Virus record (IMG/VR): IMGVR_UViG_3300042893_001849
Length of the DNA stretch: 64,000 bases
Source of the DNA: a virus
Strand: one strand, 5' to 3'
Under the pieces are notes generated by a model. That model did no database searches and had not been told where the DNA came from. It was given only the letters and a program-made list of their open reading frames with translations. Below, in pieces: positions 4,251 to 25,382 of this stretch (position 1 is the stretch's first letter; every line of letters starts with the position of its first letter). Made by a program: the position numbers and the translations under genes.

Positions 4251-4898
4251 ATGAATACTTTTGAAAAAATTGCAGAAAATAATCAATATTTTTTTTATCA
4301 AAGAGGACAGGTAAAAACAAGTAATATTTGGAATCGACCATCTTACAATGTTCTTAAAGAATTTTTAATTGAAATTAAAAACACAACAAACATTCTTGAA
4401 GAATATGAGTTGTATTTGATGGGAGGAGTTTTATATGATTTTAATAAAACATGGGACGTTGATTTTTGTATAACAGGTCCATTGAAAGACCAAAATGTTT
4501 TGGAATCATATATGAATACCATGTATGATTTATCATTAAATAAGTATAAATTTTTAATTGATATACAGTGGCTCGAACAACCACTACCACAAGTTTCCTA
4601 CCAAGAAATCACTTCACCTGAGTTTAACCATTATAGATTAAAATACATTAAAACGTCTTATATCGTAAAACAAATAGGGGAAGAAAAATCAATTAGTGAT
4701 TTAAGAGAAAAAGAAGGTATAACCAAATTAACAGAATTTTTGGTTGAAGGTACACATGAAGAATATCCTGGTAGAAAAGAAAAAATAGTTAATAGAATAT
4801 TGAATAATCCTGATAAAGTATTAAAATCAGTATTTAACGTAAAAACTTTTTTAGAAACAGACGAGGAGTATTTCCTCACTAATACAAATAGATTTTAA
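4251..4898 (+). CDS. Hypothetical protein.
   Basis: 215 aa ORF, tightly packed after the previous gene. Confidence 0.45.
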   Translation: MNTFEKIAENNQYFFYQRGQVKTSNIWNRPSYNVLKEFLIEIKNTTNILEEYELYLMGGVLYDFNKTWDVDFCITGPLKDQNVLESYMNTMYDLSLNKYKFLIDIQWLEQPLPQVSYQEITSPEFNHYRLKYIKTSYIVKQIGEEKSISDLREKEGITKLTEFLVEGTHEEYPGRKEKIVNRILNNPDKVLKSVFNVKTFLETDEEYFLTNTNRF

Positions 4899-5910: not shown

Positions 5911-8520
5911 ATGGCGTTATCAACAACTTGTGGAAATTGTTACTCTTATACCTACATAGCAATGGGTTCTGGTACCATTTATTGGACAAACTTTAACGGG
6001 TTTTCCGATTCTGCGTTTGTTAATGCTGGAGGTAGTTATTATATTGCTTGTGCCATTGAAGATACATTAACAGGCGATGGAACATTTAGTCAAGGAGATT
6101 TTTGTGGTAATGTACCATGTCCTCAAGAAACATCCACACCTGCACCAACTACTACACTAACAGCAAGTAATCCAATTACACCAACGCCAACAACAACGTT
6201 AACCACAACTCCAACACAAACAAGAACACCAAATCCAACTCCATCAACAACACCTATTAGGTGTGGAGAAGCTGTTACAACAGGAAGTTATTATTACATT
6301 GACTGTTGTGGTAATTTTATTCAAGGAACTGAAGTAGGTCTATTGGTGACAATGGATTATACTAAAAGAGGTCTATCAAATGGTGTTACATTATTAAATA
6401 ATGTTGCAACAGTTAGTTGTCCTACACCTACTCCAACACAAACTCCAACATACACACCAACAAATACAACAACTCCTACAATAACACCGACAAATACAAC
6501 AACACCAACACTTACAAGAACACCTAATGTAACTCCAACTAACAGCCAAGTTCTTAAATTAAAGAATGAATGTGACGTGTTTACATTATTTGAAATGGGA
6601 GTTCAATGTAAACCAATCTTACAACCAAAAACATCAACATCTTTGGATGGTATTTTGTCGTTAACAATAACGGGAGGTACAAGTCCTTATTCATATTATT
6701 GGAAAGGTGGACAAAGAAATCAAACTTTAGTTGGAGTACGTCAAGGTACTTATGAAGTTGTCGTGGTTGACTATTATGGTGATTATACTGCAAGTACAGT
6801 ATGTTCATTAGTTGCTCCAACACCAACCGCAACACCAACTCAAACAGTTACTCCAACAGTAACACCTTCAGGTATTTGTCCTAAATTATGTTTAATTGCA
6901 ATTTCTTCAACAGAAGCAATCGGACCTTATCAATTTGTTGGTAGTGGTAATAAGAATGGTAAGACAACTTGGACATACAACGGACAACTTAATATTGTTT
7001 GGTCTATTACTAGAAATCGTTGGGAGATTCTTCAATCAGATATGTCTACGCCATACACCCCTAATGGAGGAGGTATATTCGCTAGTACAACAACATCTTA
7101 CTACCCTGATAATGGATGGGCAATTATTGGAGGTACAGTTGCATATTCAGTAACAATGAATCAAGGAGATTGTCCAGCGTCAGTACCATTACAGGCGGTT
7201 GCAACTGTCCAAAATAGTAGTTGTAATTCAACAGTTAATGCTAACGGGTCAATTACTATTTCTGCAAAGTATGGTGTAATTCCTTATTCATATTCTATTG
7301 ATGGTGGAATTACATATCAAAGTAGTAATAGTTTTAATGGATTAAGTCCAAAAACATATAATGTAATAACTCAAGATTACGCGGAAAATGTGATAACTCA
7401 GACAGTTACTGTTGGGTATGACGAATCGCCTGTGACATATCAATTAACAATAAGCGCTAATACGGATAACGTTATAAGTTCTGTACAACCTAATAGCAGT
7501 TCAAGACAAACAACAGTACAGGTAGTGACAACACCTGAATTACCTAATGGAGTTACTATAGAATTTGAATTAGTGTTATCGTCTACAAAAACATATAACG
7601 GACCTGGTACGGGATATATAGGCGAAAATTTCACAGTCAGTCAAGGAGGAGTTGAGATAACACAAACAGCTGCAGAATCGTCAAGCGAAACAGGAACGAG
7701 ACCTAACTGCAGTCCTTCAGAACAAACAATTGTGAGTAGTGCCACCACTTATACATTAGAGATTAGTAATTCATCACCTGTGATAATTGTTGACAACTCA
7801 ACTTTATCAATAACTGACGGACAATATAGTGACAACTGTTTAACAAATTTAAGTCAAGAAATATTTGCGCAATTAGTAACACCACAGATTAAAGGATGTA
7901 GTTGTTGTTTAGTTGTTGCAGATGCACAACGTAATTCAATCAATAGTAATAGTTTGGATTATACACCAAACGCAGAGACACCACCAGAGACAACTCAAGT
8001 ATACTATAGTATCTATGATTGTGTAAACAACGAAGGTTATTACACTCAGGCATATACAAATGGAAAATTTGTAGAACCATTTGAGGCTCCATTCCAAAGA
8101 GTGTACGGGTATATACCTGGTAATCCTGCTAGTACATCGTTTACTGTTCAAGGTAAAACATATACATCTCAATCAACTGCCATATCGGTATATACTAGTG
8201 GATATCAAACGGGATGTCCTTCACCGTACGTACCAGACCCTCCACCACCAGGTCAATCTTATCTTACAGATTTAACAGGATTCGCTAGTGCGTCATCATG
8301 TTGTACAAACGGAAATCCATTTAATACTCCAGTTACTAGTAAGTACATGGCAGCTGAAGATTCAGTGCCTGTTGAAGGGAACTATGTCTATAACGAACCA
8401 GCTTTAGAAACTTTTTATAATGGAGGATTTAACTATCATAAAATGCGTAAAGGAAGTGCTAATTATGCCGTACAAATTGGAGCTATAGGTCAAATTTTAG
8501 ACGTACAAGTATGTTCATAA
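5911..8520 (+). CDS. Large PT-linker structural protein carrying SprB-type repeats (candidate adhesin or receptor-binding protein).
   Basis: GGTSPYSYYWKGG...GTYEVVVVDYYGDYTASTVC and CNSTVNANGSITISAKYGVIPYSYSIDGG...GLSPKTYNVITQDYAENV match the SprB repeat consensus. Several TP/TPT linkers. Confidence 0.6.
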   Translation: MALSTTCGNCYSYTYIAMGSGTIYWTNFNGFSDSAFVNAGGSYYIACAIEDTLTGDGTFSQGDFCGNVPCPQETSTPAPTTTLTASNPITPTPTTTLTTTPTQTRTPNPTPSTTPIRCGEAVTTGSYYYIDCCGNFIQGTEVGLLVTMDYTKRGLSNGVTLLNNVATVSCPTPTPTQTPTYTPTNTTTPTITPTNTTTPTLTRTPNVTPTNSQVLKLKNECDVFTLFEMGVQCKPILQPKTSTSLDGILSLTITGGTSPYSYYWKGGQRNQTLVGVRQGTYEVVVVDYYGDYTASTVCSLVAPTPTATPTQTVTPTVTPSGICPKLCLIAISSTEAIGPYQFVGSGNKNGKTTWTYNGQLNIVWSITRNRWEILQSDMSTPYTPNGGGIFASTTTSYYPDNGWAIIGGTVAYSVTMNQGDCPASVPLQAVATVQNSSCNSTVNANGSITISAKYGVIPYSYSIDGGITYQSSNSFNGLSPKTYNVITQDYAENVITQTVTVGYDESPVTYQLTISANTDNVISSVQPNSSSRQTTVQVVTTPELPNGVTIEFELVLSSTKTYNGPGTGYIGENFTVSQGGVEITQTAAESSSETGTRPNCSPSEQTIVSSATTYTLEISNSSPVIIVDNSTLSITDGQYSDNCLTNLSQEIFAQLVTPQIKGCSCCLVVADAQRNSINSNSLDYTPNAETPPETTQVYYSIYDCVNNEGYYTQAYTNGKFVEPFEAPFQRVYGYIPGNPASTSFTVQGKTYTSQSTAISVYTSGYQTGCPSPYVPDPPPPGQSYLTDLTGFASASSCCTNGNPFNTPVTSKYMAAEDSVPVEGNYVYNEPALETFYNGGFNYHKMRKGSANYAVQIGAIGQILDVQVCS

Positions 8521-11919: not shown

Positions 11920-12834
11920 ATGTCAGATGAGATAGAAGTATTAGTAGAGTTACTTACAGATGTGTTGGGGAAACCCAAACAACACTACGAGTCCAAAGGT
12001 CAAATATCATTTGATTGTCCTGTCTGTGCTGAAGATAAGGGGTTAGACCATGGTGATGGTAAAGGTAACCTTGAGATTAACTACGGTAAACACGTTTATA
12101 AGTGCTGGTCTTGTGGTGAAACATACGGAACTCAAGGACCTCTTGGTAAGTTATTTGACAAACACGGAACCAAAGCTCAAAAAAAACTATACAATTTAAT
12201 CAAACCTGAGGAGTTAAAGAAAGAAGACCTTAAACGACCAACATTAAGACTTCCTGAAGGTTATACAACCTTTAAAGATTCAAACGCAAGGTTTATACCA
12301 CACATTGAAGCCATGAGGTATCTTACCTCAAGAGGTATTACCGAAGAAATTATTGAGAAGTATAAGATAGGGTATACCGTATCAGGAGACTTCGCCTATA
12401 GAATTATTGTCCCATCCTTCAACACTGAAGGTACTTTAAACTATTTTGTTGCAAGGGCGTGGATATCAAACAAAATGAAATACAAGAACCCGACGGTTCC
12501 TAAAGATGAGATTATATTTAACGAGGGATTAATTGATTGGGAGAAAGATGTCTATTTGGTTGAAGGAGCATTTGACGGATTCTTTTTAGAAAACTCTATT
12601 GTAATGTTAGGGAAGAAGATGAGTAAGTTATTGTTTGAAAACTTATACAACAGAGCCAATGGGAATATAATCATCTGTACTGACGGTGATGCATGGAAAG
12701 ATGGACTAAAACTATACCACGAGTTAAACGGTGGTAGATTATATAACAAAATAAAAATTGTTAAATTACCTGGTGATAAAGACATCTGTGATTTACGAGG
12801 ACAAATAGATGAGTATTACTATGAAATTAAATAA
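11920..12834 (+). CDS. DNA primase (zinc ribbon plus Toprim).
   Basis: CPVCAEDKG...YKCWSCGE zinc-binding pairs and a VEGAFDGFF Toprim motif. Confidence 0.6.
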   Translation: MSDEIEVLVELLTDVLGKPKQHYESKGQISFDCPVCAEDKGLDHGDGKGNLEINYGKHVYKCWSCGETYGTQGPLGKLFDKHGTKAQKKLYNLIKPEELKKEDLKRPTLRLPEGYTTFKDSNARFIPHIEAMRYLTSRGITEEIIEKYKIGYTVSGDFAYRIIVPSFNTEGTLNYFVARAWISNKMKYKNPTVPKDEIIFNEGLIDWEKDVYLVEGAFDGFFLENSIVMLGKKMSKLLFENLYNRANGNIIICTDGDAWKDGLKLYHELNGGRLYNKIKIVKLPGDKDICDLRGQIDEYYYEIK

Positions 12835-13657
12835 AGTAGCTGAAGAAATCAGGGAGTTAATCGCTCAAAGACAACAAGAACTTGGACTAACCTTTGAAGA
12901 GGAAGACCACATATACACAATGAACGGAAAGAAGGATTACCCTTCAGTTTCCAAAGTATTAAAGAAGTTCTATACTGAGTTCCCAACTGAGGAGGCGGCT
13001 TATAATAAAGCAGGTGGAGACCCACAAAGACAACAAGAATTAATTGAAGAGTGGGCTGCGGCTGGTGAGTATTCAACTAACATGGGAAGTCGTGTTCACT
13101 TTGTATTAGAGAGCGAACTCATTAAAAGAAATGGGAATTATAAAGAGGTGAGACAACCTGACTTCAACTGTGATTTAACACAGATGATGAAGGGTGATAA
13201 TATGATTGTTGCGGGTAACAAGTATCTCAAGTTAATGGAGGAAAGAGGAGCGGTTCTATTAGACACGGAGATGGTTCTTGGAGACCCTGAATTAGGATAC
13301 ACAGGACAACCCGATAAGATTTGGTTAATGATGAACAGACTTAATACTGAGTTTGGATTAGTTATCACGGATTGGAAAACTAATAAACCAAAGAACTTTC
13401 TCGTAACAAATTATACTAAGAAAATGTTACAACCATTCACCAAATATGATGACACGGCACTTGGCCACTACTACCTTCAACTACCCTTATATGGTAAGTT
13501 ATTAAAGAAGATGTTAAAAGGTACCAAATATGAAGACATTAAATTATTTGGATGTGTTATATCACATCTTAAAGATGACACTCAATATGATGAATATAAA
13601 GTACCTCAAGATGTTATTGATATCATAATGGACATGGATATGAAAAAATATTTGTAA
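12809..13657 (+). CDS. PD-(D/E)xK family exonuclease (RecB/Cas4/lambda-exo-like).
   Basis: GQPDKIWLM ... LVITDWKTNK (D...D/ExK motif). Confidence 0.5.
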   Translation: MSITMKLNKVAEEIRELIAQRQQELGLTFEEEDHIYTMNGKKDYPSVSKVLKKFYTEFPTEEAAYNKAGGDPQRQQELIEEWAAAGEYSTNMGSRVHFVLESELIKRNGNYKEVRQPDFNCDLTQMMKGDNMIVAGNKYLKLMEERGAVLLDTEMVLGDPELGYTGQPDKIWLMMNRLNTEFGLVITDWKTNKPKNFLVTNYTKKMLQPFTKYDDTALGHYYLQLPLYGKLLKKMLKGTKYEDIKLFGCVISHLKDDTQYDEYKVPQDVIDIIMDMDMKKYL

Positions 13658-16384: not shown

Positions 16385-18763
16385 ATGAAATGGGATTTAT
16401 TCAATCCACCACCAACGTTTAATTACAAACATATGGCGACAAAGCTAGATACAACTACTTTGGATAATCCGTACATCCAAGTCATTTGGGAGGATACACC
16501 AGAGAATTTTACTCAAGAGAGGATTAAGTCGGTAAAACAGTACTTCATGAAGAAGTACGCCTCTTCTAACATCAACGTAATCACAAAGGTGAAGACGACT
16601 GATGATACACAACAAACCGTTGATGTTTCTGTGAACATCATGGACAAAAACTACCAAATAGAGTTAATCAAGTCATTACTTGAAGCTAAGGGACAAGACC
16701 AATACTTGGACCAAGTTATGAATATTGACCTTGCGGTAGAAAACAGAATGGCGGCCAACGAAGTTGAGGTTACTCCATTCAAAAGATGGTACATCAAAAA
16801 GATTGAGTTTAGTAACTTCTTATCTTATGGTGAGAACCAAGTAATCGACTTCGAGAAGTGTAATGGTATTACCGTGGTTGAATCAGACCCACCTAACTTT
16901 GGTGGTAAGACTGTATTGACTGTGGACTTACTATTGTTCTTGTTCTTTAACACCACTACGAAGACACAGAAAGCAGAAGAAATCTTTAATAGATTTACAG
17001 ACATTAACAAGGTTAGTGTTAAGGGTGACATTGTGATTGACGGAGAGGAATATGTTATTGCTCGTCAGATTGAACGAAAGAAATCCAAAGCTGGAGAATG
17101 GAATGTTAAGACAGAACTTGAGTTCTTTAAAAAACTTGCTGATGGTCAACTTCAGAACTTCACAGGTGAACAACGTAGAGAGACTGAAGAATTCATGAAA
17201 AAATCTATTGGAACGATGGATGACTTCTTGATGACAATTGTCACAACTGCGTCAAACCTTGAGGATTTATTGGATGCAAAACCAACAGCTCGTGGTCAGG
17301 TACTAAGCCGTTTCTTAGGTCTTGAATTCTTGAAGAAGAAGGAAGAGACAGGTAAGGAAATTTACTCTGAGTTCTCAAAAGGAATGATGTCTAATGTGTA
17401 TAACACAGAGTCTTTGAAACAAGACAACGAGACATCATCTGAAGAGATTACTCGAATGAAGAATGAAATTAAAGACATGACCAATAAAATTGGTGACGTT
17501 GATAATAGACTTCAGAAGGGACAAGAGTATAAGGACAATCTACTCGGGTCTAAATTCACAGACTTGGACAAAGAGTTGATTGTTCTTAATCCTATCAAAT
17601 TACAATCTGATATTTCAGACCTTGAAGGTTCAAGTGAAAGAATCAAAGGACAAATCAAAGATGTTAAAATCGTTGAACCTAAAGAGTTCTATCATGAAGA
17701 CAAACATGATGAGATTAAAGATGAACTAAGAAAAACGGGAGATGACCTACTCATTGCCAACAAGGAGGTTATGGATATTAAAACCCTAATCGAAAAGTAT
17801 GGTGATGGTATTCAATGTGAGCACTGCGGAATCAAATTGATGGAAGCGGCTCTCACAAAGAAAAAAATTGATGAGTTAAAGGATTGGGAAAAGAAAGTTA
17901 AGGCTCTTGATAAAGAGTATGAAAAACTTGACAAGAAAGAAAAATCCTATACTCAACTTAAGAAAGACTTTGACGAATACGAGAGAAACAAACTTATCAA
18001 GGAGAAACACGAGTTATCGTTGGAATCCAATGATTTGAAGTTAGCTAGTGTCAAAGACAAACTTAAGAGATACGAAGAAGTTCAGGACAAGATTAAAAAG
18101 AACAATGAGATTGATGCCCAACTGGTGAAAGCTGGTTTACGTATTGACGAATTGATTGGAGAGAAGAGGGGGTATGAGAAAATTCAAAATACCAATGGAA
18201 CTCAAATTGAAAACCTTGAAGCTCGTATCGAAAAGAATAACGGATTCATTCTTAGAATTGCCGAGGAGTTTGAACGTGAGAAGATTTATAAAATCTACGT
18301 TGACATCTATGGTAAGAACGGAATATCCAAAATTATTATGAAGACAATGATGCCATTGATTAACTCTGAACTTCAGAGATTACTTCAGGACTCTTGTTTA
18401 TTCAACTTGGAAATTCGTATCAATGATAAGAATGAGGTTGACTTTATAATGATTGATAACGGAACAGGGATTGAGAAACCATTGACTGCAGGTTCAGGAT
18501 ATGAAAAAACAATAGGGGCACTCGCTATCAGAGCAGTACTTGCTAAGGTATGTTCACTTCCAAAACCAAACATATCGGTATATGACGAGACGTGGGGTAA
18601 AATTTCTAACGACAATATGGAGATGATTGGAGATTTTTTTAAAAAATTAAAAGATTACTTTGAAAAAATATTTTTAATTTCCCATAATGGACTTATATCC
18701 AATTTCGCGGATAATGTAATTCATATTACAAAAACCGATAACATTTCAAAAGTCTCACAATAG
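16385..18763 (+). CDS. sbcC: SbcC/Rad50-like SMC ATPase.
   Basis: N-terminal P-loop (PPNFGGKTV), long coiled coil with a CxxC zinc hook (GIQCEHCG) and a C-terminal signature/Walker B region (VYDETWG, LISHN). Confidence 0.75.
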   Translation: MKWDLFNPPPTFNYKHMATKLDTTTLDNPYIQVIWEDTPENFTQERIKSVKQYFMKKYASSNINVITKVKTTDDTQQTVDVSVNIMDKNYQIELIKSLLEAKGQDQYLDQVMNIDLAVENRMAANEVEVTPFKRWYIKKIEFSNFLSYGENQVIDFEKCNGITVVESDPPNFGGKTVLTVDLLLFLFFNTTTKTQKAEEIFNRFTDINKVSVKGDIVIDGEEYVIARQIERKKSKAGEWNVKTELEFFKKLADGQLQNFTGEQRRETEEFMKKSIGTMDDFLMTIVTTASNLEDLLDAKPTARGQVLSRFLGLEFLKKKEETGKEIYSEFSKGMMSNVYNTESLKQDNETSSEEITRMKNEIKDMTNKIGDVDNRLQKGQEYKDNLLGSKFTDLDKELIVLNPIKLQSDISDLEGSSERIKGQIKDVKIVEPKEFYHEDKHDEIKDELRKTGDDLLIANKEVMDIKTLIEKYGDGIQCEHCGIKLMEAALTKKKIDELKDWEKKVKALDKEYEKLDKKEKSYTQLKKDFDEYERNKLIKEKHELSLESNDLKLASVKDKLKRYEEVQDKIKKNNEIDAQLVKAGLRIDELIGEKRGYEKIQNTNGTQIENLEARIEKNNGFILRIAEEFEREKIYKIYVDIYGKNGISKIIMKTMMPLINSELQRLLQDSCLFNLEIRINDKNEVDFIMIDNGTGIEKPLTAGSGYEKTIGALAIRAVLAKVCSLPKPNISVYDETWGKISNDNMEMIGDFFKKLKDYFEKIFLISHNGLISNFADNVIHITKTDNISKVSQ

Positions 18764-18810
18764 TGAAGAGATAGAACCATACATACTAAAAGAATTAGGA
18801 ATTAAATAGA

Positions 18811-18836
18811 CCCCACCCATAAAGTGGGGTTTTTTA
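18811..18836 (+). terminator. Rho-independent terminator.
   Basis: CCCCACCCATAAAGTGGGG hairpin followed by T6. Confidence 0.6.
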
Positions 18837-18865
18837 TTTCAAATATTTTTTGTTATATTTGTTCT

Positions 18866-19507
18866 ATGAAAAAATCAAAACATGGTATGACAAGTGAGCA
18901 AGCCCGTCAAAAAAAATTAATGGGTCATAATAATGAGAACATTGTTGCTAATGAAGTTGGTGGTATTGTATTGACAGGAAATAAAAAAGGAGATATTAGA
19001 ACTTTTGAGGATAAGACAATTTCAGTGAAGACAGGAACTAAAACGCAGTGGTCTCTTTATTGTGAGAACACTATGATTAGTGGGGATTGGAACAAAATTC
19101 AAAAAAAATCATTAATAGATTATATTAATTTCTTACCTGATTCAAAGGAGGATTATGAAAATAATAGAGCTAAATATAGAATAAACCCTTACGCCTCTGA
19201 TTTATATAGTGCATTCAAGCATGATTATATGAAGTTAATAAAGTTTTTTTGTGGATATGGTAAAGTAGATTTATTTCATTTAACTGACATAAGAGATAGT
19301 GAAAGTTATCAAGTATCTTCAAATGATTTTTTTGAGAGTATTAAAAACTCTATAACAAGAATATATACAACACCTGGTGGTAAATTTGTTATTGCGGGAG
19401 GCAGAAAGGACACCATTTTATTTGAGTTAGAATTAAGGAAAGGTACCAACCATAAAAAAATTTTATTTCACTCTCATTTGTCTCGTATCATTGATGTTGT
19501 GAAGTAA
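18866..19507 (+). CDS. Hypothetical protein.
   Basis: Start moved to MKKSKHGM, because the earlier ATG lies inside the terminator hairpin. TATATTTG box 4 nt upstream. The N-terminal approximately 45 nt are homologous to 21844-21888. Confidence 0.45.
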   Translation: MKKSKHGMTSEQARQKKLMGHNNENIVANEVGGIVLTGNKKGDIRTFEDKTISVKTGTKTQWSLYCENTMISGDWNKIQKKSLIDYINFLPDSKEDYENNRAKYRINPYASDLYSAFKHDYMKLIKFFCGYGKVDLFHLTDIRDSESYQVSSNDFFESIKNSITRIYTTPGGKFVIAGGRKDTILFELELRKGTNHKKILFHSHLSRIIDVVK

Positions 19508-19525
19508 TTTTTTATATTTATAAAT

Positions 19526-20413
19526 ATGAAAACACCAATTAGATACGCAGGAGGGAAGAGTAAAGCGATTAAAATAATTACACCATTTGTTAGTGGCGTA
19601 GACAAAATAGTTTCACCATTTTTAGGTGGGGGTTCTTTAGAGGTTCATTGGGCTTCAATGGGTAAACAAGTTATTGGATATGATTTATTTGATGTTCTTG
19701 TTAATTTTTGGAATGTATTGTTGAATAACAAAACAGAGTTTGTTGAGAAACTAAAAGAAATCGCCCCAACATCAGAAGAGTATTCTCGAATTAAGGAAAT
19801 TTTGATGAAATGGGATAATACCCAAGATATGTTGAAAGATTGGAAAACAGAACATTACAAAAGAGAGGATATAATTAGATTAGACAATATTACAGCAGCC
19901 GCGTATTATTATTTTAATCATAACACATCTTATGGACCAGGTTACTTAGGTTGGGGTTCATCAGTGTATCTACAACCAAAGAAGTGGAGTGATATGATTA
20001 ATAAGATATCTAAATTTGATTTACCAACGTTATCGGTAAATCAAGGTAGTTTTGAAACCGTCTTACCAAAACATACTAAAGATTTTTTATATCTTGACCC
20101 ACCATATTACCTTGAAAAAGATTCTGATAATAAAATGTTTACAGGGATTTATCCCATGAGAAATATTCCTGTACATCACAATGGTTTTAATCACGAATTA
20201 TTGAGAGATTTACTTAAGGCTCACAAAGGAGGATTTGTATTGTCGTATAATAATTGTGAGACTATTCGTGAATACTATAGTGAATTTGAATTACACTACC
20301 CAAGTTGGAGTTATTCGATGGGTAATGGGGAAAAACGAATCGGTAAGAATAGAATTGAGGCTGGTATTACCAACTCTAAAGACTCACACGAGATATTAAT
20401 AGTAAAAAGATAA
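19526..20413 (+). CDS. dam: DNA N6-adenine methyltransferase (Dam/D12 class).
   Basis: IRYAGGKSK N-terminal motif and a DPPY catalytic motif. Confidence 0.8.
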   Translation: MKTPIRYAGGKSKAIKIITPFVSGVDKIVSPFLGGGSLEVHWASMGKQVIGYDLFDVLVNFWNVLLNNKTEFVEKLKEIAPTSEEYSRIKEILMKWDNTQDMLKDWKTEHYKREDIIRLDNITAAAYYYFNHNTSYGPGYLGWGSSVYLQPKKWSDMINKISKFDLPTLSVNQGSFETVLPKHTKDFLYLDPPYYLEKDSDNKMFTGIYPMRNIPVHHNGFNHELLRDLLKAHKGGFVLSYNNCETIREYYSEFELHYPSWSYSMGNGEKRIGKNRIEAGITNSKDSHEILIVKR

Positions 20414-20423
20414 ATAATACTAA

Positions 20424-20446
20424 CCCCACCCACAATTGGGGTTTTA
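20424..20446 (+). terminator. Rho-independent terminator.
   Basis: CCCCACCCACAATTGGGG hairpin followed by a T-run. Confidence 0.55.
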
Positions 20447-20482
20447 TTTTGCCATTTAATTAATTATGTATATCTTTGTTGC

Positions 20483-21088
20483 ATGACAAACGCCTACCTA
20501 TACCTTGCAACAGATGGAGTAAACGATTTCAAAAAATTTGGAATTGCCGCGAATGCTAACATCCGTTTAATCAACTACAACACTACAGAACACTTAAGAC
20601 CAATTTATTTTGAAAAGGTATTTGTGTTTGATAGTTACAATGAAGCCCGAGACGCGGAGACTAACCTCAGACAAAATCTAAAGAAATTTATCATACAGAC
20701 TCAACACATTGAAACTTTTGTATGGAATAATGAAACTAAAGAGATGTTTAATGAGTTAACCAAAGACTATACTTTAATTGAATTCTCTAATGATTATGTA
20801 GGCAATTTACAGAACAAAAAATTTCCATACCATGAAGAGTTAGTTAAATTAATAAACTATGCGGTTGAGAGTGGAATTCCAAAGAAGACAGTGGAGAAGT
20901 TGGTTATTAAAAGTCGTGTAGGATATTATCGTGAAGATGCTCCTCCTAGAATTGTAATGGAAGACCGAATCAAACATCTGGTTAGACTAACTAACAAGGA
21001 ACTATGTTGGGATAACAAACCAAGAATTTTGGATAGAATGCAAAGATTATATACCTTTGAAGAACAAATTAAAACAATATTGGCATAA
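20483..21088 (+). CDS. T5orf172/MUG113 domain protein (GIY-YIG superfamily).
   Basis: AYLYLATDGVNDFKKFGIAANANIRLINY resembles the T5orf172 core (YVYIL..G.YKIGIT.N...R). Confidence 0.45.
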   Translation: MTNAYLYLATDGVNDFKKFGIAANANIRLINYNTTEHLRPIYFEKVFVFDSYNEARDAETNLRQNLKKFIIQTQHIETFVWNNETKEMFNELTKDYTLIEFSNDYVGNLQNKKFPYHEELVKLINYAVESGIPKKTVEKLVIKSRVGYYREDAPPRIVMEDRIKHLVRLTNKELCWDNKPRILDRMQRLYTFEEQIKTILA

Positions 21089-21171
21089 TGCAAACATTCT
21101 TACCATACTCTGATATTACAGAATCATTAAGGGTTCTTGACAACAAACGTTTAGGTAAACAACGTGGTTAA
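21088..21171 (+). pseudogene. Truncated duplicate of the first 26 codons of gene 22005..22478, ending in a stop after the junction.
   Basis: 21088-21166 match 22005-22083 in 78 of 79 nt. Then a novel junction is followed by a copy of the sbcC 3' end. Confidence 0.6.
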
Positions 21172-21200
21172 AATTACAAAAACCGATAATATTTCAAAAG

Positions 21201-21230
21201 TCTCACAATAAAATGTGAGATTTTTTTTTA
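21201..21230 (+). terminator. Rho-independent terminator.
   Basis: TCTCACAATAAAATGTGAGA hairpin followed by T9. Confidence 0.6.
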
Positions 21231-21300
21231 AAATATTTTACAGAAAAACTTTACGTAATTAAATAATTATACTATATTTATAAAAAATAAAAATATAATT

Positions 21301-21936
21301 ATGGAAAAAAATTTAGTAGATTTAATTAACAAAATTCAGAGCAAGCGTGGGGAAGATGCTTTTGAAGTGTCAAACAATCCCATCTCAGAAGCATTAAACC
21401 AAGAAAAAGACCTTAAAGTTGTCTATGATGAAGGTGATTTAACAAAGAACTTTGTTAAATTCGCAACAGACTTGTTGTCTGGTAAATTTGGTGACTATTT
21501 TATAGAAGAGGTTATTAAAGGGTTTGGTGAAACCCTTAAGACGGACAAGGGAGATTTTAAAGAGTCCTATCGAAACAAACCATCTTCAATTAAAGAAATA
21601 TTACCAAGTGTGTTCATTCATACATCTATGAGTAAAATTTTGATGGAAAGTTTAATTATTGACTTAATAACTAAAGCAAGATTAACGGTTAAGTTTTACT
21701 CTCTTGAAAAAAGAAATGATTGGACATTAGAGTTAATTATGAGGGAAGCCAAAAAATATGATACAATGACTGGTTTCAGTAGAGGCAATTCAAATGCTTA
21801 TAGTGCGGCTATTAAACTTGGCATTAAAGAAGCGGTTCAAGTTCACATGAAAAAATCAAAACACGGAATGGGTAATGAGCAAGCTCGTAGAGAGACTCCT
21901 GAACAACGTCGTAGAGAAAAAATGAAAAATGATTAA
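21301..21936 (+). CDS. Hypothetical protein.
   Basis: 211 aa. The C-terminal MKKSKHGMGNEQARR segment is homologous to the N-terminus of 18866..19507. Confidence 0.45.
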   Translation: MEKNLVDLINKIQSKRGEDAFEVSNNPISEALNQEKDLKVVYDEGDLTKNFVKFATDLLSGKFGDYFIEEVIKGFGETLKTDKGDFKESYRNKPSSIKEILPSVFIHTSMSKILMESLIIDLITKARLTVKFYSLEKRNDWTLELIMREAKKYDTMTGFSRGNSNAYSAAIKLGIKEAVQVHMKKSKHGMGNEQARRETPEQRRREKMKND

Positions 21937-21943
21937 TTTTAAA

Positions 21944-21971
21944 CCCCACCCAAAAAGGTGGGATTTTTTTT
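21944..21971 (+). terminator. Rho-independent terminator.
   Basis: CCCACCCAAAAAGGTGGG hairpin followed by T8. Confidence 0.6.
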
Positions 21972-22004
21972 TGTTTATCTTAAAATAATACATATCTTTG
22001 TGGT

Positions 22005-22478
22005 ATGCAAACATTCTTACCATACTCTGACATTACAGAATCATTAAGGGTTCTTGACAACAAACGTTTAGGTAAACAACGTGTGGAGACCTTTCAAATT
22101 ATAAATGCAATTACTGGCAGACCAAAGTTGGATGGTACCCCCTACAAAGGGTGGTTAAACCATCCATGTTCTGTTATGTGGAGACAACACGTACCCTTAC
22201 TCAAGATGTACTTAAATGCAAGTATTGACGAGTGGGTACGTCGTGGGTTTAAGAATACCATGACCAAAGAAGTGATTGATGAATCTGTAACCTACCCTGA
22301 TTGGTGGGGTAATCAAAAGTTTCATGACTCACACAAGTCTAACCTATTGAAGAAAGATTTTGATTTTTATTCTCAATATAGGTGGACTGCGGAACCAACC
22401 AATCCATATGTTTGGTTAGATAAAGATGGTAAGTGGTACGAACAACATTCAGGAGAGAAAGGAAAAATATATTTTTAA
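22005..22478 (+). CDS. Possible pyrimidine-dimer DNA glycosylase family (Pyr_excise-like) protein.
   Basis: LDNKRLGKQRVE...KGWLNHP resembles bacterial endonuclease-V-like proteins (LD.KGL...REALLA...KGYKNHP). The match is weak. TATCTTTG box 4 nt upstream of the ATG. Confidence 0.3.
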   Translation: MQTFLPYSDITESLRVLDNKRLGKQRVETFQIINAITGRPKLDGTPYKGWLNHPCSVMWRQHVPLLKMYLNASIDEWVRRGFKNTMTKEVIDESVTYPDWWGNQKFHDSHKSNLLKKDFDFYSQYRWTAEPTNPYVWLDKDGKWYEQHSGEKGKIYF

Positions 22479-22479
22479 T

Positions 22480-22962
22480 ATGGAATTATATAATAGATAC
22501 AAAGAATCAAAAACTGGTAACATAGATGTAAAAATCGAGGTGTTGACTGATATTATTCGACAATACCCAAAGATTATAGATTATATATACAATAGGGTGG
22601 ACACTTGTTTTGGTCCTCACATTGTGTATTTGGTTCACATGAGGGTTGGAGGGGTGGATATGATAAAGATAGGGTATACCAAAAATTCAGTTCAAGCAAG
22701 ATTTTCTGAGTCAAGATATGCTGGTCGGGATGAGATTGAGATTGTTGAGATTATTAGGGAGAATACCTTGCAAGCTAAAGCATCTGTTGATTTTGAGAAA
22801 GCGTTGAAGACATCCTGTGTTCCTTATGCAATCACAACTGAGTTAACATTGCCAGGTAAGGGAGAGTTTATGAATATCCAACATAGAGATGCCATCATAG
22901 AGGTGTATGATAGATTATATCCCAGTTTTTCAGAAATTGTTGGATTAAAAGCACCTAATTAA
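22480..22962 (+). CDS. T5orf172/MUG113 domain protein.
   Basis: Start reassigned to MELYNRY, immediately after the upstream stop. PHIVYLVHMRVGG.DMIKIGYTKNSVQARF is the T5orf172 core. Confidence 0.45.
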   Translation: MELYNRYKESKTGNIDVKIEVLTDIIRQYPKIIDYIYNRVDTCFGPHIVYLVHMRVGGVDMIKIGYTKNSVQARFSESRYAGRDEIEIVEIIRENTLQAKASVDFEKALKTSCVPYAITTELTLPGKGEFMNIQHRDAIIEVYDRLYPSFSEIVGLKAPN

Positions 22963-22998
22963 AATAAAAATATTACATTTGTCAAAATTAAAATATTA

Positions 22999-23517
22999 AT
23001 GGAAAACTACTTATTAACAGTACTCGGAACGTTTGATGAAACTTTACGTAAAGAAATTGCTTTGTCTGTAACGCCAATCGTTGATTCGCCTAACCTTAAA
23101 TTTCAATATGCCACTGGTGTATTAATTTTTCACTTCACCTCTGAGGTAAACAAAGAAGATATCTTTGAATATGTTAAAGGAATTCTTTATGGGATATCAG
23201 ATTCTTTCTTTTTAAATGCTATAACTGACAATGTGTCTGTATGTCTTAACAATGATATCTATGGTCATTTATTTGACTTGGATAGTCCTGGTGATGACGT
23301 GGACATGAAATTTGACATGAATCGGATTAAGAACAACTTGGATTTTATGGAGTCAGAAGATGATGATGACTTTGTGGCATTACTTTTGGACGAAGCTAAA
23401 GAAAGAAACTTATTTAAAAAACCATCTCTTGACCAACTATTGGATAAACTTTTATCTAAGGGTATGGATTCATTGAGCCAATACGAAAAAGACACATTAG
23501 AAAAATACAGCAAATAA
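22999..23517 (+). CDS. Hypothetical acidic protein.
   Basis: 172 aa with a D/E-rich C-terminus. Confidence 0.4.
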   Translation: MENYLLTVLGTFDETLRKEIALSVTPIVDSPNLKFQYATGVLIFHFTSEVNKEDIFEYVKGILYGISDSFFLNAITDNVSVCLNNDIYGHLFDLDSPGDDVDMKFDMNRIKNNLDFMESEDDDDFVALLLDEAKERNLFKKPSLDQLLDKLLSKGMDSLSQYEKDTLEKYSK

Positions 23518-23520
23518 TAT

Positions 23521-24318
23521 ATGAAAGAAAAATCATCAATTCCTATCAATCAAGAAGAGATTAGTAATTACTTGAAGGACATTCGTAAACTGAAAGTAAT
23601 GACTCCTGAAAGAGAACGAGAGTTAGCTGAAAGAATGCTATCTGGTTTTATAACAGAAGAAGAAACAAAAGAAATTCAAAAAGAACTTTTGGAAGGTAAT
23701 CTACGTTTTGTTATTACCGTGAGTAAACAATATCAAAACCAAGGGTTGGACCTACCTGATTTAATTGCGGAAGGTAACCTTGGATTGATGAAAGCAATCG
23801 AGCATTTCGATTGGTCTAAACAATTAAGATTCATATCTTATGCCGTTTGGTGGGTTCGCCAATCTATCTTGCAATCATTGAATGAAAATGCAAGAACCAT
23901 CCGTCTACCAGTAAACGTGGTTCAAGAATTGCATAAAGCAAAGAAAGAATTGGAGAAGGCAGGTGTTGACCTACCTGAAAAATTCGTAAACTTACCTTAT
24001 ACGGTGAACTTGGATAGTCCATTGAACGAGGAGGGAGATACGTTATTGGATGTGTTGAATAACCCTAATGCTGATTTGGCAGATGCCAATCTATCTACGG
24101 AACAGACATTAAAAGAGAAGTTATTATCAATGTTGGACGTTTTGGATGAGAGAGAAAAAATAATTATTCAAGATTATTTCGGGTTGTCTGGTTCAACAAG
24201 AACCTTGGAAGACATAGGTAATGACTTTGATTTAACCAAAGAAAGGGTTCGACAGATTAAGGAAAAAGCTCTTCGAAAATTAAGAAATGAAACAGCTATT
24301 CTTTTCGAATATCTATAA
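23521..24318 (+). CDS. RNA polymerase sigma factor (sigma-70 family).
   Basis: Region 2 (NLRFVITVSKQY...DLIAEGNLGLMKAIEHFD) and region 4 (TLEDIGNDFDLTKERVRQIKEKALRKLR) helix-turn-helix. Confidence 0.8.
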   Translation: MKEKSSIPINQEEISNYLKDIRKLKVMTPERERELAERMLSGFITEEETKEIQKELLEGNLRFVITVSKQYQNQGLDLPDLIAEGNLGLMKAIEHFDWSKQLRFISYAVWWVRQSILQSLNENARTIRLPVNVVQELHKAKKELEKAGVDLPEKFVNLPYTVNLDSPLNEEGDTLLDVLNNPNADLADANLSTEQTLKEKLLSMLDVLDEREKIIIQDYFGLSGSTRTLEDIGNDFDLTKERVRQIKEKALRKLRNETAILFEYL

Positions 24319-24387: not shown

Positions 24388-24672
24388 ATGAAAAAATTTA
24401 TAGAAAATAACTTTGTGGTAATCGTATTGGTGATTGCCTTATTAACTTTCTTTAAAAGTTGCGGAGACTCACGAGATTTGAGTGCAATTAAAAAAGAGAT
24501 TAAATCTATTAAAGATTCAACTTACACAAAACAAGAGTTGGATGCTCAATTAAAGATTTCAGGGCTTGAAGCTGAAAAAAGAATGATTCAAGCAACTGAT
24601 AGAAAACTTCTTGACGTTAGAAGACAAACTGAAATCGAAGATGAGATAAAAAGATTAAACACAAAAAAATAA
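24388..24672 (+). CDS. Small membrane-anchored protein.
   Basis: N-terminal TM helix followed by a charged coiled coil. Confidence 0.4.
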   Translation: MKKFIENNFVVIVLVIALLTFFKSCGDSRDLSAIKKEIKSIKDSTYTKQELDAQLKISGLEAEKRMIQATDRKLLDVRRQTEIEDEIKRLNTKK

Positions 24673-25382
24673 TGAATTGGTTTCAAAAAAACTTTAAAAC
24701 GATAATCTACATTTCGTTCTTGGTCCCAATCTTGACCGTGGCGTTTGTATCTATATCGCACGTAACTAAATGGTATGGTTTATCCAATCCATTTAGTTGG
24801 GCAATCTATTTGTCTGTAGGTATTGAGATAGCTGCGTTATCTGCATTGGCTGCGATATCTGCTCAGATGGGTAAAAAAGTATATTTCCCATTTGGTATTG
24901 TTACCCTTATTCAATTTATTGGTAACATATTTTTTGCATATCAATATATTGATATTAATAGTGAATCATTCAAAGACTGGGTTGAATTAGTTGACCCCTT
25001 GGTTAGTTTCATTGGTGTTGGAGACATATCAGGTCATAAAAGATTCTTAGCATTATTCGCTGGTGGTATGTTACCATTAATCTCTCTTTCATTCTTACAC
25101 ATGTTAGTTAAGTTTGAAGAAGAAGACAAAAAGAAACAATATGAATTACCTAAGACAGAAGAAATTGATATTGACGCATTAAGTATTGAAGCTGGTAAAC
25201 AAGAAGCTTTGATTGAGAATGAAAAGTACAATCCAACCGAAGAAGATTTACAAAGACTTGAAGAAGAGTTGGTTAAATTAAATGAACAGAAATTTGGTAC
25301 ACTTGAAGAACCAACAACTTCAGAAGAACAAATAAATGAACCTGAAAAAAAGGTCTTGAATTATTTAAGAAGAGATGCTTAA
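24672..25382 (+). CDS. Multi-pass membrane protein with an acidic tail.
   Basis: Four or five hydrophobic helices. Possible holin-like or membrane-remodelling role. Confidence 0.4.
   Translation: MNWFQKNFKTIIYISFLVPILTVAFVSISHVTKWYGLSNPFSWAIYLSVGIEIAALSALAAISAQMGKKVYFPFGIVTLIQFIGNIFFAYQYIDINSESFKDWVELVDPLVSFIGVGDISGHKRFLALFAGGMLPLISLSFLHMLVKFEEEDKKKQYELPKTEEIDIDALSIEAGKQEALIENEKYNPTEEDLQRLEEELVKLNEQKFGTLEEPTTSEEQINEPEKKVLNYLRRDA

Follow-up and report, generated by a model that had tools for sequence, protein, structure and literature searches.

Back-to-back dead gene ends in a large freshwater phage genome as the probable scar of an unequal crossover

How did two dead gene ends come to lie back to back in the genome of a large freshwater phage? 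In a stretch of 64,000 nt from IMG/VR virus record IMGVR_UViG_3300042893_001849 (the window), the start of a DNA glycosylase gene (B') runs directly into the end of an sbcC-like gene (A'), and both genes are also present in full (Table 1). A first-pass annotation of the same DNA had given the order as sbcC end (A), X, B', A', Y, B. This order is correct, as is its duplication-junction topology, in which the 5' end of B is fused to the 3' end of sbcC. The annotation had further taken X and Y for the diverged copies of one tandemly duplicated segment, which does not hold: X and Y are unrelated cassettes, each of which occurs alone at the matching position in relatives. From comparison with related contigs (L numbers), which reach 326 kb, we conclude that the joint probably records a single unequal crossover, mediated by microhomology, in which two phage genomes of one clade took part.

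Table 1 Features around the joint (positions in the window)
Feature	Position	Strand	Remarks
SbcC-like gene (792 aa)	16385-18763	+	left anchor of the variable island; phrog_77 E 7e-39
A, resident sbcC 3' end	18713-18763	+	L021-like allele; D3 repeat; native terminator gone
Dead 3' end of homing-endonuclease-like gene	18765-18809	+	last 14 codons and stop (EEIEPYILKELGIK, stop); deletion scar
Predicted hairpin terminator and promoter-like box	18810-18865	+	ACCCCACCC..GTGGGGT and T run, then TATATTTG 4 nt before the X1 ATG
X1, uncharacterised protein (213 aa)	18866-19507	+	predicted Type IIP restriction-endonuclease fold (AlphaFold2 model)
Dam-like D12-class N6-adenine DNA methyltransferase	19526-20413	+	PF02086 E 2.8e-29
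Predicted hairpin terminator and promoter-like module	20412-20482	+	TATCTTTG 4 nt before ATG; left edge of the T5a cassette
T5a (201 aa)	20483-21088	+	distantly related to T5orf172/MUG113 (GIY-YIG-like) families
B', dead 5' end of the glycosylase gene	21088-21171	+	first 79 nt, followed by GT TAA; frame open over 27 codons
Candidate crossover point	21158-21166	+	9-nt microhomology AACAACGTG; B' and A' overlap
A' and native sbcC terminator	21158-21229	+	dead last 17 codons of a different sbcC allele (NVVKITKTDNISKVSQ, stop); hairpin TCTCACA/TGTGAGA, T9
Y cassette	21229-21972	+	AT-rich upstream region, gene Y, hairpin terminator
Gene Y (211 aa, unknown function)	21301-21936	+	sole family match phrog_20046, C-terminal part
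Promoter-like module and intact gene B	21973-22478	+	B at 22005-22478; Pyr_excise / MSMEG_6728-family DNA glycosylase
T5b, T5orf172-domain gene (160 aa)	22480-22962	+	starts 1 nt after the B stop

Structure of the joint

The copy of the start of gene B lies where it had been annotated (repeat D1, 21088-21166 against 22005-22083, 78/79 identical). The copy of the sbcC end is equally real (D3 core, 37/38 identical to 18725-18762), although it had been placed one base off and runs from 21173 to 21210; extended, the pair covers 50 nt at 88% identity (18713-18762 against 21161-21210). Neither match was equalled in shuffled sequence (0/100 for each). Seven bases previously regarded as filler between the two copies are part of A', which matches the sbcC end of the family back to 21158, and the T9 terminator that had been assigned to the copy as its own is the native sbcC terminator, the 5' arm of which is made by the last sbcC codons. 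The coding part of A' extends from 21158 to 21211, followed by this terminator, with a predicted hairpin of -13 kcal/mol (z -4.5). Over AACAACGTG...CAATAA, A' matches the L099 sbcC end at 100% identity, and with its terminator it is 91% identical to the sbcC end and terminator of L014. The displaced sbcC end still gives the X1-Dam-T5a unit a working-looking terminator.

Homology with a block in L110 consisting of T5a and B stops exactly at 21166, where L110 continues as B. Exactly at the joint, AACAACGTG is common to B (codons 24-26) and the L099 sbcC allele. With a slash marking the joint, B reads GGTAAACAACGTG/TGGAG, L099 sbcC reads GGTCTAACAACGTG/GTTAAAATTAC and the window reads GGTAAACAACGTG/GTTAAAATTAC. 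An sbcC allele naturally reading ...GGTAAACAACGTGGTTAAAATTAC, if one exists, would mean that B' is not derived from B.

A chimeric or collapsed assembly join at short repeats could produce such a structure, and some short contigs do stop at the repeat edges (L091 breaks off at 22083, and 18709 is where L085 and L094 begin). However, the 9 nt common at the joint are far below the k-mer size of any assembler, and contigs from at least 12 independent JGI and ENA samples span the joint identically, at 99.9-100% identity and from two kinds of assembler, including MEGAHIT k141 and contigs of 21-49 kb. No SNPs separate these assemblies between 18709 and 24224. The arrangement, for which a check of population heterogeneity had been suggested, is fixed in the population, and the artefact reading, to which we give a negligible probability, is refuted for practical purposes.

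Cassettes in a hypervariable island

The interval between sbcC and the DUF6576/sigma-factor genes is a hypervariable accessory island, measuring 512 to 7,076 nt from sbcC to the sigma gene among relatives. Its content differs widely between relatives and includes simpler arrangements, such as B only 72 nt after sbcC (L004) or the order sbcC-X1-Dam-DUF6576 (L107), which confirms the module exchange proposed on first pass. Cassettes bounded by hairpin-plus-promoter modules of one family are swapped routinely in this island. The single hairpin family that had been seen to bracket the modules is approximately 100-fold enriched in the island across 44 distinct loci; its sole members in the 64-kb window, each followed by a T run, are at 18810, 20422 and 21945. 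A TAnnTTTG box, 4 nt upstream of the ATG, makes up the promoter-like part of the modules, and sigma-70-type sites are not enriched. The module at 18810-18865 (hairpin -13.8 kcal/mol, z -3.2) is also found 3' of the endonuclease gene in L001, L014, L016, L021 and L027, and the module at 20412-20482 is identical in L124 and matches the L004 module that precedes B and the L012 module that follows sbcC.

X1 has no match in Pfam, NCBIfam or PDB sequences. Its AlphaFold2 model (pLDDT 92.4) has HinP1I (2fkc_A, E 1e-5, TM 0.65) and MspI (E 1.7e-3) as top Foldseek matches, and X1 may be a HinP1I-like nuclease paired with Dam. It always directly precedes a D12 methyltransferase gene (18 nt apart in the window), and X1 and Dam are a two-gene cassette whose members travel together in L032, L106 and L107-L109; in L044 and L047 Dam occurs alone. 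L044 also has an analogous scar, in which 33 nt of its own sbcC end are repeated after the Dam stop, with the microhomology CGATAA.

The T5orf172 label that the first-pass annotation gave to 20483-21088 is supported only indirectly: T5a itself matches phrog_681 (E 8e-5) and, below the cut-off, Pfam MUG113 (E 0.014), and its homologs at approximately 50% identity carry PF10544 (T5orf172) and PF13455 (MUG113). In L110-L113, L117-L119 and L121-L124, T5a lies immediately before an intact B, its stop and the B start overlapping by one base as in the window; L120 ends before B is called. Left-edge homology to L119-L124 begins exactly at 20412, behind several different upstream genes, and T5a behaves like a site-specific selfish gene.

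Y comprises one gene, as annotated earlier. Its cassette is 95% identical to L114-L118, with Y directly after sbcC (in L116 after another gene), and 79% identical to L081 4889-5616, where the context is different. The short homology noted between X1 and Y is real (D4, 18866-18907 against 21847-21888, 35/42 identical; ungapped score 49 against 25.5 +/- 2.1 in 200 dinucleotide shuffles, 0/200 as high), but it is an older shared motif and no part of the joint event: the 42 nt encode the peptide motif KSKHGMTSEQA, which hardly varies within the X1 family as a whole and is also conserved in the L081 homolog of Y. Gene B matches PF03013 (E 9e-22) and NF038085 (E 3e-35), and a protein identical to B is found behind at least three other upstream arrangements (L099/L101, L103, L104 and L105). 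It is T5b, and not T5a, that passes the Pfam T5orf172 cut-off (PF10544, 22.9 bits, cut-off 20), with a start called identically in other assemblies.

Origin of the joint

The parental adjacencies are found separately in relatives, at approximately 95% identity. On the left, 20471-21166 is colinear with L110 at 95.6% (T5a, then intact B); on the right, 21173-21969 is colinear with L114 at 95.2% (intact sbcC end, terminator and Y). Differing at 6/50 aligned positions, A and A' are two different natural alleles of the sbcC end, one L021-like and one L099-like. B' agrees at 79/79 positions with the intact B that is linked to T5a in L111 and L117, and the intact B of the window agrees at 79/79 with T5a-free B in L103 and L105; this haplotype argument turns on one SNP, at position 27 of B, where the T allele occurs only in T5a-linked copies and the C allele also in four T5a-linked contigs (L113, L119, L121 and L124). 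Given that both parental adjacencies and alleles are recovered from relatives, the crossover maps to a 9-nt window.

In the crossover that we propose, a left partner would have carried sbcC with the L021-like 3' end, the endonuclease remnant, X1-Dam, the hairpin/promoter/T5a cassette and B, and a right partner sbcC with the L099-like 3' end and the native sbcC terminator, followed by the Y cassette and then by a hairpin/promoter module and B. Pairing out of register through the chance microhomology AACAACGTG (B codons 24-26 with sbcC codons -17 to -15) would have joined B position 79 of the left partner to sbcC position -51 of the right, placing both cassette arrays in series, with a net gain of 2,448 nt and two dead gene ends left back to back. 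The joint, its microhomology, the identities of the two alleles, the intact adjacencies in relatives and the fixation of the arrangement are observed; we infer that two distinct genomes in a co-infection, as opposed to sister copies, were the partners and that all of this happened in one step. Among the sampled genomes, none is the exact left parent (X1-Dam-T5a, then intact B) or the exact right parent (Y-hairpin-promoter-B).

Two relatives, L117 and L118, hold both adjacencies in one genome (sbcC-Y-five genes-T5a-B), in the order that a same-genome tandem duplication, the model of the first-pass annotation, would need. In an L117-like genome (sbcC-terminator-Y-Z-T5a-B), unequal sister exchange at the same microhomology would duplicate the whole segment from sbcC end to B start; module recombination would later put the L021-like sbcC end, the endonuclease remnant and X1-Dam into copy 1, and Z-T5a would be lost from copy 2. 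Module-bounded replacement is common in the island, B' and B differ at only 1/79 positions, and with both adjacencies in one genome a tandem duplication plus two cassette replacements comes to about the same event total as the crossover. Even so, at least three events are required, A and A' are each near-identical to a separate natural allele, B' and B each match a different haplotype in full, and identical duplicated interiors occur in 0 of approximately 120 related loci. We consider this route unlikely.

The SbcC-like gene is itself a mosaic. Up to approximately 18290 it is 97-98% identical to the close relatives L114, L110 and L099, and beyond this point 60-88%; over 18536-18763 it agrees with L021 at 226/228 positions (99%). 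L021 has TAGTGGGACTTTTTTTTT directly after the sbcC stop, whereas in the window the 3' terminator arm is absent past TAGTG and the fold of the region is only -4.1 kcal/mol (z -0.75). The remnant that follows is 94% identical to the end of a 396-aa ORF of L021 (2868-4058) with DUF723 and DUF4379 zinc fingers and a DUF2726 nuclease-like domain; relative to L021, 2251-4013 is missing, with a 1-nt microhomology at the join. An endonuclease-like gene or remnant lies beside sbcC in the window and in L001, L005, L014, L016, L021 and L027, and the sbcC allele switches 230-470 nt left of the duplicated end. Both points would fit a nuclease-triggered capture, a phage version of homology-facilitated illegitimate recombination, in which a homing-type endonuclease of the donor, encoded beside sbcC, broke the recipient DNA close to the 3' end of sbcC; the left end of the recipient then invaded donor sbcC by homology at approximately 18290-18535, and the donor was copied through X1-Dam-T5a into B until the strand was caught on the resected end at the 9-nt microhomology. 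Such one-sided homology is documented in bacteria (PMC3240628) and has been put forward to explain the orphan 3' ends of Rhs and T6SS arrays (PMC5361080), and L044 is a second, independent sbcC-end duplication. However, the endonuclease gene is deleted in the window and its cleavage site is not known, the allele switch may predate the joint event, and sbcC-end duplications occur in only 2 of approximately 45 distinct lineages; we regard capture, too, as improbable.

The same product topology would arise if a mini-circle (sbcC end, X, B') were excised in the donor by illegitimate recombination and integrated by homologous recombination within the 51-nt sbcC end, as proposed for the promoter-early stem-loop (PeSL) cassettes of T4-type phages, to which the hairpin-promoter modules that abound in the island are analogous (PMC2839356). 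This is very unlikely: the joint is not at such a module, two events are needed, one being a crossover confined to 51 nt, and the L021-like allele reaches 230-470 nt beyond the repeat on its upstream side, more than a circle would carry. A single unequal crossover stays our preferred reading.

Relation to known systems

T4-like phages carry free-standing homing endonuclease genes (seg and mob). T5a resembles these in its presence/absence polymorphism at one fixed site immediately upstream of B, behind varied neighbours, and in the short stretch of B that travels along; it differs in its weak family assignment and putative nuclease role. The window also keeps a T5a-free presumed target 900 nt away, unchanged across samples, which an active homing enzyme should not spare.

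The PeSLs of T4-type phages are likewise compact modules of approximately 65-75 nt (stop, hairpin, promoter-like box, start), concentrated in a hyperplastic region and placed at the borders of blocks that vary among relatives (PMC2839356, PMC4122927). Unlike PeSLs, the hairpin in the window precedes the promoter and bears a T run, and the TAnnTTTG box is not sigma-70-like; the phage lineage is different, the promoters and terminators are putative, and the B'/A' joint lies elsewhere than at such a module. In homology-facilitated illegitimate recombination and in the 'C-terminal displacement' arrays of Rhs/T6SS effectors (PMC3240628, PMC5361080), as here, incoming DNA is anchored in a conserved upstream gene, the resident 3' end is displaced downstream and not replaced, leaving an orphan gene end, and the non-homologous joint shows microhomology of a few bases. 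Those systems belong to bacteria and proceed via transformation or conjugation, whereas the partners in the window would be replicating phage genomes, and the putative homologous sbcC anchor may or may not belong to the same event.

In the Hendrix/Hatfull model, 'novel joints' made by illegitimate recombination underlie phage genome mosaicism. This model has been tested against homeologous recombination (PMC2327257). The locus shares with novel joints the non-homologous or microhomologous out-of-register joining of two phage genomes, the new gene order, the tolerated junk at the joint and a joint inside coding sequence instead of at a gene boundary. It differs in that the window is from an uncultured large phage and that the parental adjacencies and alleles are recoverable at 95-100%. 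Read as an unequal crossover, the locus would be a clean but ordinary case of how phage genomes become mosaics.

The joint and its standing in the population

The region 18500-22600 was read directly and then scanned for repeats. Its genes are listed in the table below; they follow the order A-X-B'-A'-Y-B, in which A is the resident sbcC 3' end, X comprises the X1, Dam and T5a cassettes, B' is a dead 5' copy of the glycosylase gene B, A' is a dead copy of an sbcC end and Y is a single-gene cassette. The homologies described in the first-pass annotation are real: B' and B agree at 78 of 79 positions (21088-21166 versus 22005-22083) and the sbcC ends at 37 of 38 (21173-21210 versus 18725-18762), each with 0 matches in 100 shuffles of the window, and X1 and Y agree at 35 of 42 (18866-18907 versus 21847-21888; score 49 versus 25.5 +/- 2.1 in 200 shuffles). 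A repeat tool extended the sbcC pair to 50 nt at 88% (18713-18762 versus 21161-21210). The T5orf172-domain gene T5b was also considered as a recent paralog of T5a, which was ruled out because BLASTP gave no significant similarity between them.

Features of the accessory island and its flanks in the window
Feature	Position	Strand	Remark
SbcC-like gene	16385-18763	+	
X1	18866-19507	+	
Dam-like D12 methyltransferase	19526-20413	+	
T5a	20483-21088	+	followed by two gene fragments (B', A')
Y	21301-21936	+	
B, Pyr_excise/MSMEG_6728-family glycosylase	22005-22478	+	
T5b, T5orf172-domain gene	22480-22962	+	followed by a DUF6576 gene and a sigma factor

Exact-protein look-ups with T5a and Y found the same arrangement in at least 12 independent samples, from JGI (3300042484, 3300044846, 3300042523, 3300043438, 3300042519, 3300042287, 3300002835, 3300044609, 3300042486 and 3300042401) and ENA (ERZ27271790 and ERZ27272064). 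Population contigs spanning the joint agree with the window at 99.9-100%, down to the one mismatch between B' and B, and no SNP falls within 18709-24224. The suspicion that the repeats are assembly artefacts is not borne out, given that at least 12 independent assemblies agree across the joint and that the partners share only 9 nt there, a stretch too short for an assembler to be misled by. The population itself carries the joint. The look-ups returned window-type contigs only, and there is therefore no exact parent at 100% protein identity.

Two side observations concern these contigs. All variation among otherwise identical population contigs clusters at 24420-24676, in a small gene (24388-24672), with up to 50 SNPs in one contig (L089; L001-L124 denote related loci or contigs from viral and metagenome assemblies), and the island itself is free of them. 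Four short metagenome contigs (L091, L085, L094 and L097) have an end at or close to a border of the 79-nt or 51-nt repeats (window 22083, 18709 and 22063), as expected if assemblers break there, which calls for caution in the binning of this phage.

Parental adjacencies and a probable nine-base crossover

Both parental adjacencies exist in relatives. On the left, T5a (87-98% amino acid identity) lies directly upstream of an intact B, with the one-base stop/start overlap seen in the window, in L110-L113, L117-L119 and L121-L124; the L120 contig stops before B is called. The stretch 20471-21166 is colinear with L110 at 95.6%, and the match stops exactly at 21166, where L110 runs on as B; in the left parent, B would run past position 79 as ...AACGTGTGGAG. 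On the right, L114, L115, L117 and L118 have the terminator and then Y (98% amino acid identity) after an intact sbcC, and 21173-21969 is colinear with this L114-type order at 95.2%. Leftwards, A' continues as intact sbcC in L099 and L114-L118. The intact sbcC of the right parent would end NVVKITKTDNISKVSQ; an exact-pattern scan of IMG/VR gave no intact sbcC with the A' allele, which was found in intact sbcC by protein look-up in ENA assemblies.

The crossover can be placed closely. In L099, a close relative that encodes a B protein identical to that of the window, the sbcC end reads TCTAACAACGTGGTTAAAATTACAAAAACCGATAATATTTCAAAAGTCTCACAATAA and matches window 21158-21211 at 100%; A' still fits the family consensus leftwards of the 38-nt core described earlier (GTGGTTAAAATTAC). 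B reads GGTAAACAACGTG up to the crossover and TGGAG beyond it. The 9 nt AACAACGTG (21158-21166) are common to B and the L099 sbcC allele, and their flanks are unrelated. Because A' equals the L099 sbcC end from 21158 onwards and B shares these 9 nt, the crossover lies within them, and the 7-nt junction that the first-pass annotation had set between the two copies is not filler and belongs to A'. The locus has the properties of a phage novel joint made by microhomology-mediated illegitimate recombination: each side is contiguous with other sequence in relatives, few bases are shared, and it is real in the population.

The two sbcC ends also differ in what they carry. Alignment of the sbcC ends of all relatives shows that the last codons (..AAAGTCTCACAA) form the 5' arm of the family's intrinsic sbcC terminator. 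The complete hairpin with its T9 run stands after A' (-13 kcal/mol, z -4.5), and the resident end is without the 3' arm (-4.1 kcal/mol, z -0.75). The identity of sbcC in the window to L114, L110 and L099 is 97-98% as far as about 18290 and then drops to 60-88%; 18536-18763 matches L021 at 226 of 228 positions, a relative that is only about 86-88% identical elsewhere. The allele thus switches between about 18290 and 18535 from the core-clade to an L021-like form, a change that may be separate from the joint event. Of 50 aligned positions, 6 distinguish A from A' (88% identity), A being the L021 allele (226/228) and A' the L099 allele (100%).

Directly after the bases TAGTG, 18765-18809 holds the last 14 codons and the stop of a 396-aa gene that is intact in L021 (2868-4058), where it encodes zinc-finger repeats and a DUF2726 nuclease-like domain and is endonuclease-like. 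The hairpin and promoter-like module of that gene comes next in the window (94% identity to L021 4014-4132). Compared with L021, the window is missing 1.76 kb, namely the 3' arm of the sbcC terminator, a gene for a putative lipoprotein (judged from an N-terminal signal-like sequence) and most of the endonuclease-like gene. There are therefore three dead gene ends in the region, not two.

These observations support a single unequal crossover at the 9-nt microhomology, which would have fused an ...X1-Dam-T5a-B genome to an sbcC-terminator-Y-...-B genome, with a gain of 2,448 nt. The first-pass annotation had proposed a tandem duplication with X and Y as diverged copies of one segment, but they share no homology beyond one 42-nt motif and each stands alone at its position in relatives; nor do the duplicated ends come from the same allele, as a simple tandem duplication would have them. 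A same-genome history is the less likely alternative and would require about as many events in all: an L117-like order duplicated in tandem, and then the replacement of two modules. Two different co-infecting relatives are the favoured partners from the sequence comparisons, because the two sbcC ends are separate natural alleles and the two B copies fit different haplotypes: B' is identical over 79 of 79 nt to the T5a-linked B of L111 and L117, and the intact B over 79 of 79 nt to the T5a-free B of L103 and L105. T at B position 27 occurs only in T5a-linked copies, yet C is found in T5a-linked L113, L119, L121 and L124, and T is only a suggestive marker.

A more specific version of the crossover would be repair triggered by a nuclease, with homology on the sbcC side only. 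It would resemble homology-facilitated illegitimate recombination and the orphan 3' ends of Rhs/T6SS arrays (PMC3240628, PMC5361080); a right-hand joint at a microhomology of few bases (9 nt) is present here. In its favour are the sbcC allele switch just to the left, which may be the homologous anchor, the endonuclease remnant, and an independent case of the same kind in L044, where a 33-nt copy (97%) of the contig's own sbcC end lies directly 3' of the Dam stop (12355-12387 and 13321-13353), joined through the 6-nt microhomology CGATAA.

Modules and cassettes of the island

An SbcC search fetched 80 related loci, on viral contigs as long as 326 kb. Among them, sbcC and the sigma-factor gene lie 512 to 7,076 nt apart, with very different content in the interval, from B directly after sbcC (L004) through X1-Dam only (L032, L107-L109) to Dam with an HNH gene and T5a (L044). 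The joint thus sits in a hypervariable accessory island, and simpler configurations than that of the window do exist in related genomes (L004; L032, L107-L109), which answers the objection, foreseen in the first-pass annotation, that relatives might offer no simpler arrangement. In L027, a 58-nt direct repeat (88%; 4530-4587 and 6152-6209) of terminator tail and promoter-like region just after sbcC encloses about 1.6 kb of island content. Against a phage collection, megablast of 16400-23600 gave no match and a distant search of deposited phages returned Dam only, with 70% nucleotide identity to an uncultured phage record (642 kb) over 912 nt and 74% to dam of marine cyanophage S-PM2 over 229 nt; cultured relatives are therefore unusable for comparison.

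Homology blocks between relatives stop at a recurrent hairpin-promoter module of about 65-75 nt, of which 20 distinct instances stand between a stop and a start codon in the window and its relatives. Each consists of ACCCCACC-loop-GTGGGG with a T run (-10 to -14 kcal/mol), an AT-rich spacer and, 4 nt ahead of the following ATG, a TAnnTTTG box. Across 44 distinct loci there are 17 hairpins in 119 kb of island versus 1 in 739 kb of flanks, an approximately 100-fold enrichment, and all 3 hairpins of the 64-kb window fall within 18.8-22.0 kb. The B'/A' joint itself lies away from any such module. The hairpin and promoter repeats of the window (D2 and D8) were considered as part of the B duplication and ruled out, as they belong to this generic family found after many different genes. 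At X1, T5a and B the box precedes the ATG by exactly 4 nt (18852-18868, 20470-20485 and 21992-22007), as it does at many island genes in relatives. A ribosome-binding site would not fit in between, which points to leaderless or near-leaderless transcripts. Sigma-70-type sites are not enriched (18 found versus 21.4 expected). TAnnTTTG would be the -7 promoter element of Bacteroidota and, as such, a hint of the phylum of the host.

Promoter-early stem-loop cassettes (PeSLs) of T4-type phages (PMC2839356, PMC4122927) are similar in being repeated composites of a stem-loop and a promoter-like part between stop and start codon, concentrated in a hyperplastic region as the modules here are in the island. 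They differ in that the promoter part of the predicted modules here misses the sigma-70 consensus.

X1 and Y gave no usable match in Pfam, NCBIfam, PHROGs or PDB sequence searches, and for X1 a fold search alone was informative: its confident model (pLDDT 92.4) matches HinP1I (E 1e-5, TM 0.65) and also MspI, both Type IIP restriction enzymes. Dam matches PF02086 (E 3e-29), and X1 is always directly 5' of a D12 methyltransferase gene, in the window, L032, L107-L109 and L106, the last in an unrelated genomic context. X1 and Dam are thus candidates, on the modelled fold, for a Type II restriction-modification cassette, and X1 for a new restriction-enzyme family carried by large phages as a mobile two-gene cassette.

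The X1/Y homology, real in itself, is not part of this event. It encodes the X1 N-terminal motif KSKHGMTSEQA. In 31 X1-family proteins, with identities as low as 42%, six of its residues are invariant and most others reach at least 90% conservation, and a similar tail closes the Y homolog of L081. This conservation marks the 42-nt match as an older shared peptide motif, so that it does not count as another junction of the event. The C-terminal part of Y (21700-21936) has a further motif, ..EAKKY..F..G...AY.AA.K.G......HM, that recurs in island endonuclease-like proteins (L021 2868-4058, L081 1676-4462) and is followed by K-S/T-K-H/T-G, resembling the start of X1.

For T5a, support for the T5orf172 label is indirect. 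Homologs at about 50% identity carry PF10544 and PF13455, which makes a distant relationship to the T5orf172/MUG113 families likely, but T5a itself has no PF10544 match and scores below the cut-off against MUG113 (E 0.014; 16.4 bits, cut-off 22.3). The hairpin-promoter-T5a cassette (20412-21088) is directly 5' of intact B in at least 11 contigs (among L110-L113 and L117-L124) behind several upstream genes, and its left edge is constant at 20412, just before the hairpin, whatever the upstream gene. By this distribution T5a behaves like a site-specific, homing-element-like selfish gene upstream of B. A T5a-free copy of its site (21973-22004) is kept 900 nt away in the window, unchanged in at least 12 samples, which argues against active homing.

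Implications for phage mosaicism

The repeats first noticed at this locus are confirmed, their earlier interpretation holds in part, and the mechanism belongs to a known kind: the locus is a well-documented, ordinary recombination scar. A broader reading, which we consider unlikely, is that the sbcC 3' end and terminator form a recurrent capture site with stacked cassettes, a phage counterpart of the 'C-terminal displacement' of Rhs/T6SS arrays (PMC3240628, PMC5361080), with which the locus shares orphan 3' ends, working beside hairpin-promoter modules of a PeSL-like type in large phages outside the T4 lineage. Island-encoded selfish nucleases would then break the sbcC end and terminator, a co-infecting relative would serve for the repair, its homology confined to the sbcC side and its other side joined by microhomology, and incoming cassettes would be stacked before resident ones instead of replacing them, leaving orphan gene ends.

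The recombination scar is an unusually well-resolved natural example of how phage mosaicism arises, in which the crossover is confined to 9 bases, environmental relatives preserve each of the two parental configurations, and the product is fixed, with no change from sample to sample in many of them. It indicates that two alternative accessory cassettes, here a candidate restriction-modification pair with a selfish T5orf172-like gene and, as the other, gene Y, can be added together and not only exchanged, and that a displaced sbcC end can be reused as a predicted terminator. The island-specific modules suggest that phages other than the T4 type also shuffle modules in the PeSL manner. Current understanding is unchanged by these results, and is now documented in a new lineage.
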